This document shows, piece after piece, positions 5,435 through 54,416 of a stretch of DNA of 64,000 bases (positions within the stretch are counted from its first letter, which is position 1; each line of letters begins with the position of its first letter). Where the stretch lies: positions 520 through 64,519 of the forward strand of contig JAJRUP010000152.1 in NCBI GenBank assembly GCA_024277725.1, read 5' to 3'. The position numbers and the translations under genes are program-made. This DNA comes from a bacterium. Lineage in GTDB: Bacteria > CG2-30-53-67. The notes beneath the pieces were generated by a model that made no database searches, was not told the DNA's origin, and worked only from the letters and a program-made list of their open reading frames with translations.

Positions 5435-7159
5435 ATGGATTCTTTCATCATCAAAGCCATCCGGGATGAATGGTGGACGATACTTCCGGCAGCTCGGATT
5501 CAACGGATCACCGAGATCCGTCAAAACGAGTTTCTCTTTATCCTGCGCACTCCCGGGCGGAACCGGAAGGTATTGATTTCCTGCAATCCTTCCCACCCGT
5601 CCCTCCACCTGACGGACGCCGACTTTCAGGCCGTCTCTCCTCCCTCCCCCTTCTGCATGGTGCTGAGAAAACATTTGACCGGCGGCACCCTGCAGGAAAT
5701 CTCTCTGCCCCCCCTGGAGCGGATTCTGACGCTCACCATACACCGGCGAAAGGAATCGGGACGGCTGCAAAAAATACATCTCATCATTGAGATCATGGGC
5801 AGGAGGAGCAACCTGATCCTCGCCGACCCGGACACGGGCAACATCGTCGATTGTGCCCGGCATATCCCCGGGGAACAGAACCGATTCCGTCAACTTCTTC
5901 CGGGACACCCCTACATAGCGCCCCCCCGTCCCGGAAAGATCGACCCCCGACATCTCACCGCAGCCGACATCCCACACAATCTTCAGGAAAGCGGGTCACC
6001 CCATCAATGGGTTGTAGAGCAAATCCGGGGATTCAGCCCCCTTCTCGCAAAAGAAGTCCTTTCCCGCAGCCGACGGAACGGCATCCTCCCCGTCATTGAG
6101 AGACTCATGGATGACTATGATGCGGGACGTTTCGAGCCGGCGATCTACCGTTCCCCCGATGGGTGCAGACGGATCCTGAGCGCATGCCGGCTCGATCACC
6201 TTGCGGATTTTACAAGGATTCCCTGTGACACGATGAATGATGCCGCCGACCGTCATCGGGAGATGTCCCTTACGACGGAAGAAGTCAACCCGGCCCGTTC
6301 ATCCCTCTCCAGGGCCCTCGAAAAAGTGATCGCAAAACAGGAAAGGATCCTGGCGTACATCGAAAAGGACCGCACTGCCTGCAAGGACCTGGACCGGCTG
6401 CGGCAGACGGGGGAATGGATACAGGGAAACCTCTATCGATTAAAAAGAGGCATGACGGAAGCCGAATTAATCGACCCGATGGGAAAGGAGCCCCGTCCGT
6501 TACGGGTCGCCCTCGATCCGCAACTCGCCCCCTATGAAAATGCACAACGCTATTTCCGGCGCTACCGGAAACTTCAAAGGATGCAGGCGGCGACCGAAAA
6601 CCGGTTCAGCAAGATTACCGGGGAACTGGAATATCTCCTGCAGGTCCGGGAAACCGTCCGGCAGGCCGAGACATTAGAGGACCTCCAGGAGATCCGGGAG
6701 GAACTGGCCGCCGGAAAATACCTCCCCCCTTCCCGGCAGAAAAAGAAGAAGAAAAAGAAACAACAGATCCGGCCGCCCCGCTGTTATCTCTCCTCGGCAG
6801 GGCACATCCTCCTGGTCGGCCGGAACAACCACGACAATGATCGCCTGACCACCCGCATTGCACACCGGGAAGACCTCTGGTTTCATGCCCAGGGACTTCC
6901 CGGCGCCCATGTGATCCTGCGCAATCCACAAAGAGATGAGATTTCACCGAAGGTGCTCCATGAAGCGGCGCTCCTCGCCGCCTACTACAGCCGGGGGAAA
7001 GATCACCCCAAGGTCCCCGTGGTCTACACCCTCCGCAAACATGTCAAGAAACCTCCGGGGGCGAAACCGGGAATGGTTCTCATTCATCACGAGAAGACCC
7101 TCCTCGTCGTCCCCCGGAAAGAGGATCTCCCCACCCCCTGCCCGGTAGAGGAATCCTGA
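5435..7159 (+). CDS. rqcH: NFACT-family RNA-binding protein (FbpA/Rqc2 homologue; ribosome quality control RqcH-like)
   Basis: 574 aa. N-terminal NFACT-N (ILRTPGRNRKVLISCNPSHPSLHLT), coiled-coil middle, C-terminal DUF814/NFACT-R (GLPGAHVIL...AAYYS). Contains a KKKKKKKQQ tract. Confidence 0.75.
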   Translation: MDSFIIKAIRDEWWTILPAARIQRITEIRQNEFLFILRTPGRNRKVLISCNPSHPSLHLTDADFQAVSPPSPFCMVLRKHLTGGTLQEISLPPLERILTLTIHRRKESGRLQKIHLIIEIMGRRSNLILADPDTGNIVDCARHIPGEQNRFRQLLPGHPYIAPPRPGKIDPRHLTAADIPHNLQESGSPHQWVVEQIRGFSPLLAKEVLSRSRRNGILPVIERLMDDYDAGRFEPAIYRSPDGCRRILSACRLDHLADFTRIPCDTMNDAADRHREMSLTTEEVNPARSSLSRALEKVIAKQERILAYIEKDRTACKDLDRLRQTGEWIQGNLYRLKRGMTEAELIDPMGKEPRPLRVALDPQLAPYENAQRYFRRYRKLQRMQAATENRFSKITGELEYLLQVRETVRQAETLEDLQEIREELAAGKYLPPSRQKKKKKKKQQIRPPRCYLSSAGHILLVGRNNHDNDRLTTRIAHREDLWFHAQGLPGAHVILRNPQRDEISPKVLHEAALLAAYYSRGKDHPKVPVVYTLRKHVKKPPGAKPGMVLIHHEKTLLVVPRKEDLPTPCPVEES

Positions 7160-17333: not shown

Positions 17334-17593
17334 GAGAAAACCTCCCGGAAGATTTAAAAAATATGGACAGCCTACCCGAATCCCTCCCTTCTGTCAAAGG
17401 GGAATTTCAGGAGAAAAGCGGAAATTATCACGAAAGGAGTAGTGCAAAAATGAGGAGATCACGAATAAATTTACCAGGATTTGAGTAATTTAGTAATTCC
17501 CGGCGATTTTTTTGTGACTTTTCCCCTCCTTATCCCACTAATATACTGATTTTTTGTTTTATCGTTCAAAACGCGAAATAAGGAGTGACAAAA

Positions 17594-18940
17594 ATGGCAA
17601 TGATCACGGAAAGAATCTCAATCGACTCAGGAAAGATCCAAAACTTCATCTTGCAGTTCATCCTCTTGACCCTCCTCCTCCCCTTCCATGCAGAGGCGGC
17701 AGCCAACTATACGTTGGGGATGATCAGCGACCCCACTTACGGAATCATCGACCGGAACCCCGTGCTCGACAACACGGGCCGGGTGGCCTGGGAACAGAAA
17801 CGGCCCAACCCCGACGGCTGGTCCTACAGCTCCGGGATCCATCTCTACGACGGCGGGACCCACACCTTCCTCGGGGACTATACCCACGAGAACGTGGGTC
17901 CGACCCTGAGCGACTCGGGCTCACTTGTGTGGAGGGACAGAACCACAAGAGAAATCAAACAATACAGCAACTCTTCGACCCAGACGATCGGTTCCTACCT
18001 GGCCTACACGGACCAGGCGGTCAGCCGGGACGGCAAGGTGGCCTGGTACTACGCCGATTCCAGCAGCGGATCGAGCAACAACGCCTTTTATCTCTACTAC
18101 CACGGCACGACGAACGTCTCCCCGAACGCAGGCTATTTCGACTATCCCGCGTACACCATATACAAACCCTACGGAAACGCTTCCGGAGCTTACGCCCCGA
18201 AGGTCAACAATGCCGGACAGACCGTCTGGATGGGAGGCGTGTACGACCAGGAGATCTTCGTCTACGACAGTGCGGCCGGGACCATCAGCAATATCAGCAA
18301 CCGGAGCTTCGACGACTACTACCCGGACATCAACGACAGCGGCGAGATCGTCTGGTATGGTGTAACCTCCACCGATACGGGATACCCATACGGATACCCC
18401 ACCGAGGCCGATCTTTTCTACTACAACGGTTCTGCCGTGCAAAGCATCACGGGAAATCCGGTAAGCACCAGCGGGGGTTATTCGGCGCCGCTCATCAACA
18501 ACAACGGCCAGATCGCCTACGTCGGCCCCGACACCGATCCCGGGGGCACCGACCTGGAGGTCTTCCTCTACGATATCGCATCCGGCACCACCCTCCAGAT
18601 CACGCACGACGATATCTGGCAGCCCTTCTATTTAAGCATGAACGATTACGGCCAGCTCGCCTGGGTCGGGGTCGCCAAAGACCTCTCCACCGACGACGAG
18701 GTCTTCGTCTGGGACGGGAGCGTCGTGCAGCAGCTCACCCACGACGACGGCAACGCCCTGAACACCTCCATCAACAACCTGGGCCAGGTGGTGTGGGAAA
18801 ACTATGATACCAATCCCTCCAACCAGGACTGGGAGGTCTGGCTCGCCACACCCACGGCCGTTCCCGAACCGGGCAGTCTCCTGTTGATCGCCTCGGGCAT
18901 CACCCTCCTCTCCCTGCGGCGTTCCCGGAACGGTTCATAA
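17594..18940 (+). CDS. secreted repeat protein with PEP-CTERM sorting signal
   Basis: ATG at 17594 with AAGGAG upstream and a signal peptide. About eight ~45-aa repeats (E[VI]F[VL][YW]DG...T......[IL]N[ND].G[QE][IV][AV]W.G, ELW-DGT-like). C-terminus VPEPGSLLLIASGITLLSLRRSR is PEP, then a TM helix, then an Arg cluster. AT-rich upstream region. Confidence 0.7.
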   Translation: MAMITERISIDSGKIQNFILQFILLTLLLPFHAEAAANYTLGMISDPTYGIIDRNPVLDNTGRVAWEQKRPNPDGWSYSSGIHLYDGGTHTFLGDYTHENVGPTLSDSGSLVWRDRTTREIKQYSNSSTQTIGSYLAYTDQAVSRDGKVAWYYADSSSGSSNNAFYLYYHGTTNVSPNAGYFDYPAYTIYKPYGNASGAYAPKVNNAGQTVWMGGVYDQEIFVYDSAAGTISNISNRSFDDYYPDINDSGEIVWYGVTSTDTGYPYGYPTEADLFYYNGSAVQSITGNPVSTSGGYSAPLINNNGQIAYVGPDTDPGGTDLEVFLYDIASGTTLQITHDDIWQPFYLSMNDYGQLAWVGVAKDLSTDDEVFVWDGSVVQQLTHDDGNALNTSINNLGQVVWENYDTNPSNQDWEVWLATPTAVPEPGSLLLIASGITLLSLRRSRNGS

Positions 18941-24874: not shown

Positions 24875-25990
24875 ATGTGCCGATTAAGCGCAGTCACTTC
24901 CGACCAATACTTCTCTCCCATGGAGAACATCCTGGCCCTTGAAACCATGAAGGAAGGGCACGACGGTTCCGGTCTGGGCCTGGTCTTGAAGGACCTGGGC
25001 GGAGAATTCGAGCATCTCAAGGAATATCCGATCCTCTCCGGAATCTGTTCCAACAAAGGAATGGAAGCCCTGAATCATTATATGGAAGAAGCGGGCTTTG
25101 TAGAAAAATTCATGTGGGAACCTCGAATCCGGGAGATCCCGGGTTCGGGAATCACCCGTCGCGACCACTATTTCGCCAAGGCCTACAAATATCCACCTGC
25201 TTTCCAGGACAAAAACGAAGAAGAAAAAGAACAACTCCTTTTGGAAACCCGGTTAGCCCTCCGGGACCTGGGAGAAGCCGACGAGTCGATCTTCGTCTTC
25301 TCTTTCTATCCCGATGTCATCACCTTGAAATCGGTCGGCGACCCCCTGCAGGTGGGAGAATTCTTCGGTCTCGACAAGGATTCACTGACGGCGAAGATTA
25401 TCTTTGCCCAGGGACGGCAGAACACCAATTACGCCATTTATCTTTATGCCTGTCATCCCTTTTTCATTGAAGGCTATTGCACCATGACGAACGGGGAGAA
25501 CACGGCTTTCGTTCCGATCCGGGAATTTTTAACCAGCCGCGGGTTTGCAGGTTACCGGGGGTACAACAGCGACAGCGAGGTCTTCACCCACATCCTCCAC
25601 TATTGTCATCGACAACTCAAATTCCCCCTCCCCTATTTCAAGGATGTCATCACTCCTCTGCAGGAAGGGGAGATCGAAGGGCGTTCGGACCGTGATGCCG
25701 TCCGCCTGATCAAGAAATCCCTACGGCCCCTCTGCATCGACGGACCGAATTGCATAATCGGATTTACCCCGGACGGCACGGTCTTCATGACCCAAGACGC
25801 CAAGAAACTCCGGCCCGGCGTTGTCGGCGGCGTGCCCGGCAAATACGCCCTCATGTCCGAGGAGTGCGGGCTCGACCGGGCCGTACCGGAACGAGACAAG
25901 ACACAAGACATCTGCCCCATGAAATATGATATGGTGGTGGTTTCTCCGGGAGCCAGAAAGGTAACAAAATGGAACCAGCTGAACGTTTAG
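24875..25990 (+). CDS. glutamate synthase, class-II glutamine amidotransferase subunit (archaeal-type domain 1)
   Basis: Begins MCRL (Cys2 nucleophile typical of Ntn class-II GATases). First of three adjacent genes that together cover glutamate synthase domains. Confidence 0.8.
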   Translation: MCRLSAVTSDQYFSPMENILALETMKEGHDGSGLGLVLKDLGGEFEHLKEYPILSGICSNKGMEALNHYMEEAGFVEKFMWEPRIREIPGSGITRRDHYFAKAYKYPPAFQDKNEEEKEQLLLETRLALRDLGEADESIFVFSFYPDVITLKSVGDPLQVGEFFGLDKDSLTAKIIFAQGRQNTNYAIYLYACHPFFIEGYCTMTNGENTAFVPIREFLTSRGFAGYRGYNSDSEVFTHILHYCHRQLKFPLPYFKDVITPLQEGEIEGRSDRDAVRLIKKSLRPLCIDGPNCIIGFTPDGTVFMTQDAKKLRPGVVGGVPGKYALMSEECGLDRAVPERDKTQDICPMKYDMVVVSPGARKVTKWNQLNV

Positions 25991-27719: not shown

Positions 27720-30038
27720 ATGGTCATCAAAGGAAATATCAAAGGAAAACGGATCCCCTCACGTGAACTGGAGGAACAGATCCAGCAGGCCGTCCGGGAC
27801 GGGAACCGGACCTTGACCATTCAGGCCGACGGCCAGCACGGCATCGGCGGCCGGATCTGGCCGATGGGTAAAAAGATCCGGGTCACCGTTACCGGTCCTG
27901 TCGGACAACGCCTCGGCAGCATGGGGATGGAAGGAACGGAGATCCTTGTGAAGGGAAGCGCCTCCGACGACGTCGGTTGGATCAACTGCGGCGCGAAGAT
28001 CACGGTCTTAGGTGACGTCACCAACGGCGCTCACAATGCCGGCGCCCAGGGCATCCTTTATGTCCAGGGAGGCGGCGGTGCCCGCTGTGACACGATGACC
28101 AAACATAATCCCCGTTTCGAGCCGCTCCAGTCGTGGTACTTCCGGGATGTGGGCGACTCCTTTGCGGAATTCAAGGCGGGGGGGATCGCCGTGGTCTGCG
28201 GTGTGAATCCCCGGAATCCGGACAACATCCTCGGCTACCGTCCCTGTGTCGGGATGGTGGGGGGGACCATCTATTTTCGGGGCCCCATCCAGGGATTCAG
28301 TGAAAATGATGTCAAGCAGGTCGACCTGACCCCCCAAGACTGGGACTGGCTCACCAAGAACATCAAGCCCTACCTCAAGGCGATCAACCGGATGGATCAC
28401 CTCGAGGAACTGACCCGATCGGCGGAAGACTGGAAGAAACTGATTGCCTATACCCCGGCGGAAAAGGCCGAAAAGCGCGGCCGAAAGATCCCGATGGCGG
28501 AGTTCCGCGAAACGGTCTGGGAGAAAGGGGTCGGCAAAGGCGGTATCTTCGGGGAATATCTCGAACACGATCCGACTCTCCTTCCCTACATCACAAACGG
28601 TGAGAACCGACGGTTCCGTCCGGTCTGGAACAACGACCGGTACCTGCCTCCCTGCGCCTACTCCTGCCCGTCACGGATCCCGTCGCATAAGCGGGCGAGC
28701 CTGATCCGACAAAACCGCCTCGAAGATGCCCTGGCACTGGTCCTGCAATACAGCCCGTTCCCGGCCTCCGTCTGCGGCCAGGTCTGCCCGAATCTCTGCA
28801 TGGACGCCTGTACCCGGGGACAGATCGACAAACCCCTCGACATCAAGAATCTCGGGAGTCTCAGCCTGGAACTCCCGGCTCCCCAAAAAGCCCGTTCCAC
28901 CGGCAACACCGTCGCCATCATCGGCGCCGGGCCGGCGGGACTCTCTGCGGCCTGGCAATTGGCCCTTCGGGGACACACCGTCGATCTCTATGAGTCCACG
29001 GGGAGACTGGGGGGTAAGCTGGAACTCTGCATCCCCCGGGAGCGGCTTCCTCAGGAGATCCTCGCCAAAGAGATCTCACGCTTTGAGGAGATGGGGATCA
29101 ATGTTCACCTCAAATGCAAAGTAACCCGGAAACTCTTCAAAAAACTCTACAGAGAACACGAAATCGTCATCATCGCCTGCGGCGCCCATGAGGCTCGGGT
29201 GATCCGTTTCGACGGTATCGACGATGTCACCCCCGGCATCGGATTCCTCAAGGAGATCAATTACGGGACACCGAAGGACTTGAAGGGGAAAGAAGTCATC
29301 GTCATCGGTGCCGGCAACGTCGGCATGGATATCGCCTGTCAGGCCTATGCCTGCGGTGCAAAGTCGGTCACCGCCGTCGACATCCAGCCACCGGCAAGCT
29401 TCGGCAAGGAACAACAGATGGCCCGGGAACGGGGGACCCGGATCCTCTATCCCAAAGTGACGAAGAAGTACAGCAAGCGGGCGAAAAAACTTTACTTTGA
29501 AGACGGCTCCTCACTTCACGCCGACGAAGTGATCATATCCATCGGCGAAGTGCCGGTCCTTGATTTTCTTCCTCCCGAAATCCACACGGAGCGAGGATAC
29601 GTCGTTGCAAATGAACTCGGACAGAGTTCGGATGTCAAGGTCTTTGCCGTGGGGGATGTCACACAGCCGGGCCTGATCACCCATGCCATCGGGCAGGGCC
29701 GGATCGCCGCCGACGTTATTCACCATCAGATGATGAGCTATGATTACGTCCCCGAGGAAAAGCAGGTCATCCCCTATCACCGGATCAAGACCGTCTATTA
29801 CGAGAGTTCCCGTCCCGATGAGTTTGTACCGGAAGAGGAGGCCAACCGCTGCATGTCCTGTGGTTCCTGCCGTGACTGCGGCATGTGCGAAACAAGCTGT
29901 TACTACAATGCCATCTCACGGGTGGAAGGGGAAGAAGGGAGTTTCGAATACATTGTCAACGATGATCTTTGTATCGGCTGCGGTTTCTGTGCGGGGATCT
30001 GCCCTTGCGGCGTGTGGGAGATGAAAGAAAACGTCTGA
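27720..30038 (+). CDS. glutamate synthase GXGXG domain fused to a GltD-like NAD(P)H:FAD oxidoreductase and a C-terminal 2x[4Fe-4S] ferredoxin
   Basis: N-terminal tandem-repeat GXGXG domain (IQADGQHGIGG..VLGDVTNGAHNAG..YVQGGGG). Two dinucleotide-binding motifs (IIGAGPAGLSAA; VIGAGNVGMDIA). C-terminal CxxCxxCxxxC pairs. Confidence 0.8.
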   Translation: MVIKGNIKGKRIPSRELEEQIQQAVRDGNRTLTIQADGQHGIGGRIWPMGKKIRVTVTGPVGQRLGSMGMEGTEILVKGSASDDVGWINCGAKITVLGDVTNGAHNAGAQGILYVQGGGGARCDTMTKHNPRFEPLQSWYFRDVGDSFAEFKAGGIAVVCGVNPRNPDNILGYRPCVGMVGGTIYFRGPIQGFSENDVKQVDLTPQDWDWLTKNIKPYLKAINRMDHLEELTRSAEDWKKLIAYTPAEKAEKRGRKIPMAEFRETVWEKGVGKGGIFGEYLEHDPTLLPYITNGENRRFRPVWNNDRYLPPCAYSCPSRIPSHKRASLIRQNRLEDALALVLQYSPFPASVCGQVCPNLCMDACTRGQIDKPLDIKNLGSLSLELPAPQKARSTGNTVAIIGAGPAGLSAAWQLALRGHTVDLYESTGRLGGKLELCIPRERLPQEILAKEISRFEEMGINVHLKCKVTRKLFKKLYREHEIVIIACGAHEARVIRFDGIDDVTPGIGFLKEINYGTPKDLKGKEVIVIGAGNVGMDIACQAYACGAKSVTAVDIQPPASFGKEQQMARERGTRILYPKVTKKYSKRAKKLYFEDGSSLHADEVIISIGEVPVLDFLPPEIHTERGYVVANELGQSSDVKVFAVGDVTQPGLITHAIGQGRIAADVIHHQMMSYDYVPEEKQVIPYHRIKTVYYESSRPDEFVPEEEANRCMSCGSCRDCGMCETSCYYNAISRVEGEEGSFEYIVNDDLCIGCGFCAGICPCGVWEMKENV

Positions 30039-30146
30039 TGGTTCGACAAGCTCACCATGCACGGTCTGTTTTCACAGACTCACCATGAGCGGATTCTTAT
30101 CCCTTCCCCTGAACCGGTCGAAGGGGAAACGGAAGGATCAAAGGGC

Positions 30147-31358
30147 TTACATCCCCAAACTGGCGAGCAGATCATCGACATCCTGCTGACTGCCGACATT
30201 CGCTTCACAGACACTCTCACTTGATTCCTGGCTCTGGGCGTTAAATTCAACGGCCAGTTCCGGATTCATGATGCAAAGCACCTCTCGAAGGGTTCCCGTC
30301 AACGTATTGATCTGCTGACTGACCTTGTCGGCAAATTGCAGGCTCATCTCCGCTTCATCAATCCAGGGGATCACATCCTCCGGGACCTCGTCCCGAAGCT
30401 TACCCAGAATCTTCACGATCGTTTCGGTATTGCTGGCAATCCCTTTCCGGACATGCTGTGTCTTCCGGTGAAAATCCGAGGCGTCGACAATCTCTTCCAG
30501 TTTGTTCAGCACGGCCTTATAGAGTCCCAGAATCTTTTCCCGTTCTTCCATCCGGTGATAACGGTCGAGAAAGGCCACCAACTGGTTCTTGAAGAGGTGT
30601 ACCAGGTCGACCAGACGTCCGTCATCGGACGATATTGTCTCCAGAGGCCGGACCTTCATGGAACCGGCATAATCGGCCTTGCTGAAAAAGACACGGACCG
30701 AACCGTCCTCGGAGAGGGAATGGTTGTAGGTGTTGCGGATCCGTTCCCGGATCTTTGCCTGTTTTTTCGGCTCATCCTCAAAATCGATCGAGCACTCCAT
30801 CCCCAGATCCTTGAGAGTATCTACAACCAGACGGCAGGCTTCCTCCAGATCGAGGGTTTCCTGAAGATACTGCCCGCAGTGAACCAGCCCCGCCAGATCT
30901 TCATGCAACTGGATCAGGGCACCGGCATATTCTTCCATGAGTTTTTTCGACTTCTCCAGGGCACGACATTCCTCCCGTTCCTTCCACCGGGATCGGGCTG
31001 ATCGCGCCATCTGCCGGAACATCAGTGCCGAGGCCGCCTCCGACCGGGGTTGCTCGATGATCATCGTATGATCGGACACCGGCAATCCAGCGGTGATGCC
31101 CGACGTCATCTCGTCAAGCACCACCGTACACTGGATTTCCGGAAACCTGCGGGCCAGCGCATCGGACATGGAAAAGGCATCCCGTTCCGGGGGGGAGTGG
31201 GAGATCAACACCGATGCCCCGGGACATGAATCCAATAATTCCACCGCTTCCTCTTCCGTATCGACAAGAAGGGTCCGTACATTTTCCGTGCAGAACTCCT
31301 CCCCCGGATGTGCGAAGGGGAAAGCACCCACAGCGATCACATTCCATTCCGCATCCAT
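30147..31358 (-). CDS. hypothetical protein with a degenerate receiver-like N-terminal domain
   Basis: 403 aa. The N-terminal ~110 aa (NVRTLLVDTEEEAVELL...ASVLIS) are receiver-like; the rest is a helical acidic region with no recognised motif. Divergent from lptF. Confidence 0.5.
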   Translation of the reverse strand: MDAEWNVIAVGAFPFAHPGEEFCTENVRTLLVDTEEEAVELLDSCPGASVLISHSPPERDAFSMSDALARRFPEIQCTVVLDEMTSGITAGLPVSDHTMIIEQPRSEAASALMFRQMARSARSRWKEREECRALEKSKKLMEEYAGALIQLHEDLAGLVHCGQYLQETLDLEEACRLVVDTLKDLGMECSIDFEDEPKKQAKIRERIRNTYNHSLSEDGSVRVFFSKADYAGSMKVRPLETISSDDGRLVDLVHLFKNQLVAFLDRYHRMEEREKILGLYKAVLNKLEEIVDASDFHRKTQHVRKGIASNTETIVKILGKLRDEVPEDVIPWIDEAEMSLQFADKVSQQINTLTGTLREVLCIMNPELAVEFNAQSQESSESVCEANVGSQQDVDDLLASLGM

Positions 31359-31671: not shown

Positions 31672-32853
31672 ATGAGAAGAATCCTGCCCCGTTATATTCG
31701 CAAAGAGATCCTGCCCCCTTTCGCACTCTCTTTGTGCGTTTTCACCCTCGTCCTCTTCATGCAGAATGCCCTGGAGCTGTCCAACCTGATCATCACGAAA
31801 GGTGTGGCCCCTTCCAATATCGCCCGGATCGTTCTCTACACACTTCCCCCCACCCTCTGGCTCACCCTTCCCATCTCCTTTCTCACGGCGAGCTTGACAG
31901 CCCTCAGCCGGCTTTCCTCCGACAATGAAGTCATTGCCATGAATTCCCTGGGCATCGGGCTGGGAAGCTTTCTCCGCCCCGTAATGACCCTGGGCGTGCT
32001 TTTGTTCCTTCTCACCTTCGCCGTCGGAGCCCTCGCCATCCCCTGGGGGCGCACTTCCTTGAATCAGCTCGTCTACCGGATCTTCCAGGAAAGCGCAACC
32101 GCCGGGATCGAGCCCAAGGTCTTCAATGACACCTTTTCCGACCTGGTGATCTTCGCCGATGATGTCGAACGGGGGAAAAACATCCTGCGAAACGTTCTGA
32201 TTACGGATTACCGGGGAGAATTGCCGGAGACCATTTATGCACAGTCCGGAATAATCCACTCCAACCCGGACAGCCTCACTCATTCCTTGACGCTGCACAA
32301 CGGCGCCGTCCACCAGTACAACGCCCGCAAAGGGCAGTACCGTTTGATTCATTTTCAGGAGTATCAACTCTCGCTGGTCACCGACGTGGCACCGGTGGTC
32401 TATTCGATGAGCCTTGGAGAGAAGACCTATCATGAGATGACCCTGGCGGAACTCCGCAAGGCCGCACAGGAGGGAGAGCCTGTAAAGGCACGGAGTTTTC
32501 AGCTTCACTACTATGAAAAATTCGCTCTTCCCTTCTCCTGTATCATCTTCGGGCTTGTCGCTCTTCCCTTCGGAACCCGTTTTCAACGATCGGGAAAGAT
32601 GATCGGTTTTTCCTGGAGCCTGGTCATCGTCTTTTGCTATTACCTTCTCCTGGGCGCTGGACGTCATTTTGGAACGGAAAACCTGCTCCCCCCGTTGCTT
32701 GCAATCTGGCTTCCGAATCTGGTCTTCGGCCTGATCGGCATCTATGCCCTTTTCCGGGCCTCGCGGGAGATCCCGCAAGATCGAGGTTTTCTGGATGGGA
32801 CCTATGGTCTGCGACATGCCTTTCGGCGAATTGTGAAACCGGCCGGAAAGTAA
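31672..32853 (+). CDS. lptF: LPS export ABC transporter permease LptF
   Basis: MRRILPRYIRKEILPPFALSL is the typical YjgP/YjgQ N-terminus. Six TM helices with a periplasmic beta-jellyroll insert. Followed by lptG. Confidence 0.8.
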   Translation: MRRILPRYIRKEILPPFALSLCVFTLVLFMQNALELSNLIITKGVAPSNIARIVLYTLPPTLWLTLPISFLTASLTALSRLSSDNEVIAMNSLGIGLGSFLRPVMTLGVLLFLLTFAVGALAIPWGRTSLNQLVYRIFQESATAGIEPKVFNDTFSDLVIFADDVERGKNILRNVLITDYRGELPETIYAQSGIIHSNPDSLTHSLTLHNGAVHQYNARKGQYRLIHFQEYQLSLVTDVAPVVYSMSLGEKTYHEMTLAELRKAAQEGEPVKARSFQLHYYEKFALPFSCIIFGLVALPFGTRFQRSGKMIGFSWSLVIVFCYYLLLGAGRHFGTENLLPPLLAIWLPNLVFGLIGIYALFRASREIPQDRGFLDGTYGLRHAFRRIVKPAGK

Positions 32854-32864
32854 ATGAAAAAACG

Positions 32865-33947
32865 ATGAAGACCCTCTCAAAATATGTAGCCCGTGAATAT
32901 ATCAAGATGCTGCTGATCTGCTTCAGCGCCGTCACGACCGTCTACCTGCTGGTACACTTCCTCGGAAAACTCGATGAGTTTATTGAGTTCAAGGCCTCTC
33001 TTTCATTGATCATCCGAATGATCCTCCTGAAAATCCCCAGGATCTTCTATGAGGTCCTGCCGATCGTCTCGCTCCTCGCGACACTGATTACCCTGAGCCT
33101 CTTCTCCCGTCACAATGAAATCATCGCCATGCGCGCTTGTGGGATCCGTCTGAACCGGCTTCTCGTGCCGATTTTCTTTGTCACCCTCATCCTCTCCCTG
33201 CTGGCGCTGGCCGACGGGGAATGGCTGGTCCCCTATGCCAACCAGCGCCTCAGTTGGCTCGACGACGTGGCCCTGAAAAAAAAGCCCCATCTTCTGGCCT
33301 TGAAGAATAATCGAATCTGGTTTCGAACCGGCACTAACGGTTTTTGCAATATCCGAAAGGTCGATCCGGACCGCAAGATTCTTCACGGTGTCACGCTCTA
33401 TTATTTTAATTAACATTACGAGTTAAACCATCGGCTGGATGCGGACGTGGTGGTCTGGAAGGAAGGCGCCTGGATCACCCGGGAAGGGACCGAGTGGACC
33501 TTTTCGGAATCCGGAGAGATCCGGGAAGAACGTTCCTTCCAGGGCACTTTTCCGCTGGAGGAACCGCTGGAGGAAATCATCAAGGTCGAGAAACCCTCCA
33601 AGGCGATGGGCTACAAGGAACTCCGAAAATATATCAGGATCCTGAAGAAGGATGGTTATCCGACCACCGCTTATGAAGTCGACCTCCATGCGAAGATCTC
33701 CTATACCGTGATCAACCTCATCATGGTGCTCCTGGGGATCCCCTTCGCCCTGCACACCAATCGCAAAGGGGGCCTCGCCTTCAGCATCGGGATCAGTCTG
33801 GTCGTGGGATTTCTATACTGGCTGGCTTTTTCGGTGGGACTCTCCTGCGGCCATGGCGGTCTGGTATCTCCCCTCCTCGCTGCCTGGATCGCCAATCTCC
33901 TCTTCGGAACGACGGCAGGTTACCGGCTCGCCAAGGTCCGGTTCTGA
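32865..33947 (+). pseudogene. lptG: LptG interrupted by an in-frame TAA (33411-33413) inside an AT-rich patch; 5' fragment 32865..33413, 3' fragment 33414..33947
   Basis: MKTLSKYVAREYIKMLL...GVTLYYFN*HYELNHRLDADVVVWKEGAW... continues in the same frame (32634 and 33447 both frame 0) through to the C-terminal TM helices. Local sequence tattattttaattaacattacgagttaaac is atypically AT-rich. Confidence 0.6.
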
Positions 33948-53833: not shown

Positions 53834-54337
53834 CTATGCCGGGGAACCGGGGAAGACGGTGACGATCCGGTCCCCCACGTGAACATCGAATTCGGAGCAG
53901 AGCAGCACCAGTTCTGCATCCTCCAGGGGCATGTTGATCTCCAGGGCGATCGGTTTTTTCCCGGCATCCACCCGGTACCGGTAGAGGTCCTTTGCCTCCA
54001 ACAGACGTTCCGAGATCGAAAGCGGGGTCAGGTCGAAGATCCGCAACCGGTCCCGCTCCACCCGGTTCCGGTAGTAGATCTGCACGACATCCCGGAAAAC
54101 AAGCCGGTGGGGAAGATAGGGATTGACCGTCCCGGAATTGATCCGCAACCAATCCTGACACCGCAGATCGACACGAACTTCTTCGCCGTGAAGATCCAGA
54201 TCAACCGTCTCCACATCCGCCTGGTGGAAGGAGAAATCCTGCCGAAAGGTTTCGGAATCGATCCGACCTCCCGCAATGTCGTCTGCAACTTTTTTCAGAT
54301 ATTCCCGGATCTGGTCGTCCGAATAATTTTCCGTCAT
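53834..54337 (-). CDS. hypothetical protein (about 167 aa)
   Basis: No recognised motif. GTG/ATG starts at 54343/54337. Preceded on its strand by repeat copy R2. Confidence 0.45.
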   Translation of the reverse strand: MTENYSDDQIREYLKKVADDIAGGRIDSETFRQDFSFHQADVETVDLDLHGEEVRVDLRCQDWLRINSGTVNPYLPHRLVFRDVVQIYYRNRVERDRLRIFDLTPLSISERLLEAKDLYRYRVDAGKKPIALEINMPLEDAELVLLCSEFDVHVGDRIVTVFPGSPA

Positions 54338-54416
54338 TGACACCTTCTCCTTGATTCTAATTCTCCCGGTCGAAAGACGAAAGGCCGTCCCAGGTAAACC
54401 GGGACACTACTCATAA

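Follow-up and report, generated by a model that had tools for sequence, protein, structure and literature searches.

Why should a gene for lipopolysaccharide (LPS) export carry a stop codon in its middle? The question is raised by a 64-kb stretch of bacterial DNA, here called the window. In it, the lptG reading frame runs on the plus strand from an ATG at 32865 to a TGA at 33945-33947: 360 codon positions plus the terminal TGA, with one interruption. Translation of 32865-33947 gives a single internal stop in one frame, ...GVTLYYFN*HYELNHRLDADVVVWKEGAW..., and this TAA occupies 33411-33413, as codon 183. LptG is essential in the model Gram-negatives studied. Several explanations come into question: foreign DNA, recoding, a split protein, a decaying gene, or a change of one base.

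The gene itself is not in doubt. The 182 residues before the stop match positions 1-174 of the 353 in the Pfam LptF_LptG profile (E 6e-45, 154 bits), and the remaining 177 align with positions 181-352 (E 3e-33, 116 bits; the cut-off is 27.9). The two halves are collinear on the profile, with no indel, and together make a full-length match to PF03739 above its curated cut-off. Counting the stop as one position, the gene is 360 positions long, equal to its 20 closest homologues, all of which are uninterrupted; it is 92-97% identical to the intact 360-aa proteins P0001 and P0136. The locus is one lptG gene cut once, with nothing lost or added, as the first-pass annotation of this DNA had described it.

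Three features identify the gene as lptG rather than lptF: solved LptG chains match it at E 1e-18 to 1e-13, and LptF chains at 8e-10 or weaker; the homologues carry the LptG name in their source annotations; and lptF adjoins it on the same strand. That neighbour (31672-32853, plus strand, 393 aa) had also been called intact, and it is: the product covers profile positions 1-351 of 353 (E 3.7e-87), and its reading frame ends with TAA 11 nt before the lptG start. The same-species contigs introduced below also encode a 393-aa LptF. The window gene thus shares with the LptG permease of the LptB2FG LPS ABC transporter (PF03739; 5L75, 5X5Y, 6MHU, 8FRL) its full-length collinear profile match, its lptF neighbour and, by alignment, six predicted transmembrane (TM) segments, of which TM3 and TM4 flank a periplasmic domain. 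The LptG proteins found here are single polypeptides, whereas the frame of the window gene breaks within the periplasmic domain, at codon 183: the TAA at 33411-33413 keeps TM1-3, the beta-jellyroll and TM4-6 from forming a single uninterrupted frame. As written, the gene would yield a 182-aa N-terminal fragment (32865-33410, plus strand) comprising TM1-TM3 and the first half of the periplasmic domain, and a functional LptG product is probably absent from the TAA allele.

The stop lies in a conspicuous piece of sequence. Positions 33399-33428, TATTATTTTAATTAACATTACGAGTTAAAC, have a GC content of 0.17-0.20 over 30 nt, compared with 0.562 for the window (56%, slightly below the figure of about 58% first given for the genome). 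This is the lowest-GC stretch within lptG, and its first 15 nt (33399-33413) are the longest AT-only run in the window. To the first-pass annotation this composition suggested that the stop had arrived with a small insertion, through a recombination scar or at a faulty assembly join. The gene does contain a recombination mosaic, described below, although its boundary (33068-33149) lies 260-340 nt upstream of the stop. The composition is as described; the origin proposed for it fails against the alignments.

In every relative aligned, the patch has the same length and the same frame, with no gap at the site of the stop. Over the homologous 30 nt, GC content stands at 0.17 for the window, 0.20 for the same-species contig L058, 0.23 for L001 and L002, and 0.20 for L003. 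The patch stays AT-rich (0.20-0.23) across these four other lineages, one of them with an overall nucleotide identity of only about 80%. It reads TATCATTTTAATAAACGTTACGAGTTAAAC in L001 and begins TATCATTTTAATGAACGTTAT in L002. Contigs from the same species match it at all but one base. Equal length and shared AT-richness in the relatives and in the same-species contigs identify the patch as native coding sequence on the plus strand, AT-rich because it encodes Tyr, Phe, Asn, Glu or Lys, His, Tyr, Glu, Leu and Asn (Y-Y-F-N-(E)-H-Y-E-L-N). These alignments rule out an insertion, a scar or foreign DNA at 33399-33428, and leave that explanation with practically no chance of being right.

The position of the stop within the protein is unremarkable. 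Its column is variable, occupied by K, E, R, N, D, Q, S or A among homologues, and the codon at 33411-33413 is AAA (Lys), GAA (Glu) or AAT (Asn) in the more distant relatives. Conserved motifs flank it: VTLY-F-N/D on one side, and F/Y-x-L-x-x-R-x-DA on the other. Alignment to the solved LptG chains places the stop within the periplasmic beta-jellyroll domain that links TM3 to TM4, and the pattern of conservation suggests that the patch probably encodes the turn between two beta-strands of that domain.

What, then, was the codon before it became TAA? Four contigs, L058-L061, come from four other samples, of which three are JGI metagenomes and one is a Logan assembly. Over 12.3 kb their identity to the window is 98.4-99.1%, and they therefore belong to the same species. 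The samples behind L058-L061 and L001 have the accessions JGI 3300023503, 3300009408 and 3300023444, SRR5189948 and SRR18012666. All four encode the intact 360-aa LptG P0136, reading ...LYYFNEHYELNHRLDADVVVWKEGAW..., which falls in the same 90% cluster as the window lptG fragments. The four are identical to each other across lptG: four independent assemblies, one allele. In a 141-nt alignment centred on the stop, they differ from the window at position 33411 only, which is T in the window (TAA) and G in each of the contigs (GAA, Glu183). The window otherwise diverges from these contigs by about 1.1%, with 88 synonymous and 35 non-synonymous codon differences, mostly transitions. These differences look like genuine divergence between strains; among them the nonsense change stands as a singleton.

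The stop is very probably a private point nonsense change, known from this assembly alone: a single G-to-T at 33411 turns GAA (Glu183) into TAA. It involves no special mechanism: no insertion, scar, stop reassignment or conserved split. One candidate mechanism was considered and set aside. The T perfects a 5-bp stem (TTAAC..GTTAA), as template switching at a quasi-palindrome could do; yet a perfect stem of at least 5 bp also arises at 21 of 135 ordinary strain differences, so the feature is not distinctive. (The same base creates TTAATTAA at 33406-33413, an 8-bp palindrome that is a PacI site and the sole copy in the 64-kb window; this is probably coincidence.)

Comparison with the same-species contigs also revealed variation around the lptF-lptG junction. 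In the window, the first ~204 nt of lptG (32865-33068) resemble the more distant L001 (97.1% identity) more than the same-species L058 (85.3%); the other 879 nt show the reverse, with 99.5% identity to L058 and 87.7% to L001. Of the 39 differences from L058 in 32856-33947, a span that takes in lptG and the preceding 9 nt, 35 lie at 32856-33068. This pattern points to homologous recombination at the lptF/lptG junction or, less likely, to an assembly chimera. The boundary of the mosaic is unrelated to the stop.

The junction differs in length as well. L058-L061 have about 260 nt between lptF and lptG (9733-9992 in L058), where the window has an 11-nt gap (32853-32865). The extra DNA holds internal inverted repeats (CTCGTAAAAAGTC / GACTTTTTACGAG) and resembles the small repeats whose translation reads '...LRANG...VRQAHH...'; it has the look of a MITE-like insertion that varies between strains. 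Elsewhere, the window spacer at 30037-30147, between the gene for a 772-aa oxidoreductase and a minus-strand gene for a 403-aa protein, is completely unlike the corresponding L058 spacer (6879-7026), and window positions 30039-30064 contain a 26-nt match (92%) to the L058 lptF-lptG repeat. Intergenic repeat elements thus appear to turn over between strains.

How long could lptG have carried its stop? An old or decaying pseudogene would be expected to show raised dN/dS or several lesions. The window gene has one lesion, with no second stop or frameshift in lptG, and its dN/dS against L001 is 0.11, within the range of 0.08-0.11 for pairs of intact orthologues. Changes polarised with outgroups are similar on the two lineages: 21 synonymous and 9 non-synonymous in the window lineage; 21 and 11 in the intact L001 lineage. 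These values rule out an old pseudogene. From the polarised counts, lptG is estimated to have been free of selection for at most roughly a sixth of the terminal branch, with a best estimate close to zero. The lack of decay in the rest of lptG, together with the Glu codon in the same-species populations, implies that the stop is either absent from the cells or extremely young.

The lesion resembles an ordinary nonsense-mutation pseudogene, or an annotated 'internal stop', in being a single-base stop in an otherwise intact gene whose closest relatives are intact. It differs in that the gene hit is essential in model Gram-negatives, and in that no decay accompanies it: dN/dS is unchanged. Annotated internal stops are often consensus errors in draft or metagenome-assembled genomes.

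Could the TAA be read as sense? Suppression of the stop, floated in the first-pass annotation, would require a suppressor tRNA, programmed readthrough or an altered code. The stop is followed by C, and in E. coli termination UAA-C counts among the weaker UAA contexts. However, the organism evidently uses TAA as a terminator: it ends lptF directly upstream and 14 of the 58 genes predicted in the window with a codon-usage model. In several of these genes, YicC, NDK and EF-Ts among them, the TAA stands where the Pfam profile also ends. No tRNA gene was found in the window. Moreover, the same-species contigs have ordinary GAA in an otherwise identical context, and therefore no recoding signal has co-evolved with the stop. 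No bacterial genetic code is known to reassign TAA.

The other genes of the window tell the same story. About 55 were scanned against Pfam, and essentially all have end-to-end matches, including ffh, rpsP, rimM, trmD, rplS, rnhB, gmk, coaBC, ndk, ispG, dxr, a rseP-like gene, cdsA, uppS, frr, pyrH, tsf, and the genes for succinate/fumarate and 2-oxoacid:ferredoxin enzymes; lptG is the sole interrupted gene. With TAA ending lptF and so many other genes, and no second gene interrupted in the window, reassignment or general suppression of TAA in this organism is very unlikely, and decoding of this particular TAA by any of these routes is highly improbable.

Some features of these other genes deserve record. 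The segment 39566-48123 encodes an anaerobic TCA-type cluster: 2-oxoacid:ferredoxin oxidoreductase subunits (POR, TPP_enzyme_C, POR_N); both succinyl-CoA synthetase subunits; and the flavoprotein, Fe-S and membrane subunits of a fumarate reductase/succinate dehydrogenase. It agrees with the nearest MAGs, which suggest a Nitrospirota-like affiliation. Four well-scoring ORFs, 17585-18940 (+), 24875-25990 (+), 30147-31358 (-) and 53834-54343 (-), have no significant Pfam family, and the first of these has an unusually high third-position GC of 0.81. The 403-aa protein encoded next to lptF keeps this position in relatives. Finally, the MAG CAYZZU01 (binchicken_co172_212) contains two lptG homologues, L005 and L007: one 84% identical, on a 2.9-kb contig, and the other 59% identical, on a 125-kb contig. 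The double lptG could be a paralogue or a mis-binned short contig, and bears on the existence of back-up copies in the lineage.

A further alternative accepts the stop as a real, fixed allele. The strain would then be viable with Glu183 changed to stop because LptG works as two polypeptides, split at the periplasmic turn, or because LptB2FG manages without intact LptG. Some features are favourable. The first in-frame start after the stop is a GTG at 33447, 33 nt downstream, which opens the longest downstream ORF (33447-33947, plus strand; 166 aa), covering the rest of the periplasmic domain and TM4-TM6; the stop occupies a variable column, flanked by two conserved strand-like motifs, a permissive place for a split; and the assembly of the window is otherwise clean. 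Naturally split or reinitiated membrane-protein genes likewise present two ORFs in one frame that jointly cover one family profile.

The likeness ends there. No GGAG, GAGG or AGGA occurs in the 20 nt upstream of GTG 33447, and no Shine-Dalgarno sequence was found before GTG 33450, the other candidate start for the second piece. The sequence downstream of the stop is identical in the intact same-species alleles, and therefore nothing in it has adapted to a split. The reinitiation at GTG 33447 suggested earlier thus finds no support, and translation of the 166-aa ORF is doubtful. Its product would lack 11 residues (HYELNHRLDAD) of a conserved strand, and would begin with a periplasmic tail of about 80 residues that would need export without a signal sequence. 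Unlike the parts of naturally split genes, those of lptG are separated by a single stop that the same-species contigs lack, the second has no ribosome-binding site, and the split is absent from every relative.

The databases agree. All orthologues found are continuous 360-aa proteins, so the refuting condition named in the first-pass annotation, a natural split at this point in orthologues, does not apply. No split lptG orthologue is present in the databases searched, and a collection of about 15 billion proteins records the 182-aa and 166-aa fragments from the source contig (NCBI, 66,992 bp) alone. The periplasmic domain also matters in E. coli, where proline substitutions in this domain of LptG impair growth (PMC5548808), which argues against a harmless broken copy. 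A fixed allele with a two-piece or dispensable LptG is accordingly a long shot, and the specific arrangement in a viable strain, a split at the turn or a transporter that manages without intact LptG, deserves the same small credence. Nothing in the sequence suggests an adapted mechanism.

The private G-to-T change thus remains, and with it the matter of whether the base is real. About 4% of random substitutions make a stop, and in consensus sequences of the metagenome type a wrong or minority base turns up now and then. A real nonsense allele should rarely reach majority frequency in a gene that the model organisms studied cannot do without; essentiality of LptG, however, is known from proteobacteria, not from this Nitrospirota-like lineage. 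There is no sign of poor consensus quality elsewhere in the window, which slightly weakens the case for error. Moreover, the window represents a distinct strain, whose divergence of about 1.1% consists of real differences, and a private real mutation is therefore plausible.

Attempts to find the source strain elsewhere gave no second view of the base. Exact-product look-ups of the two fragments, LptF and the neighbouring channel protein returned nothing outside the source contig. The best match in a scan of a genome collection for the same strain was 88% identical, and an exact-pattern scan of metagenomes gave 0 matches, yet also missed GAA-bearing JGI contigs that fit the pattern, so this zero carries no information. 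The literature searched yielded no account of a naturally occurring nonsense or split allele of lptG; the nonsense mutations described in PMC6854846 are in oprD, not lptG.

In our judgement, the balance tips toward a consensus base error, or a minor variant captured by a metagenome-type assembly; the first-pass annotation was right to keep a sequencing or assembly fault among its options. A real and very recent loss-of-function (null) allele is a serious but clearly weaker candidate. A real allele tolerated through a split protein or leaky readthrough is improbable. In each case the lesion is an ordinary point nonsense change, with nothing new in kind.

The main value of the observation is quality control. 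The gene should be annotated as 'internal stop, verify with reads', and annotators should not take the stop as ground for calling the LPS-export pathway missing or the gene split. Should reads bear out the T at high coverage, an uncultivated lineage would offer a natural knockout or split of a supposedly essential gene, a case of modest interest.
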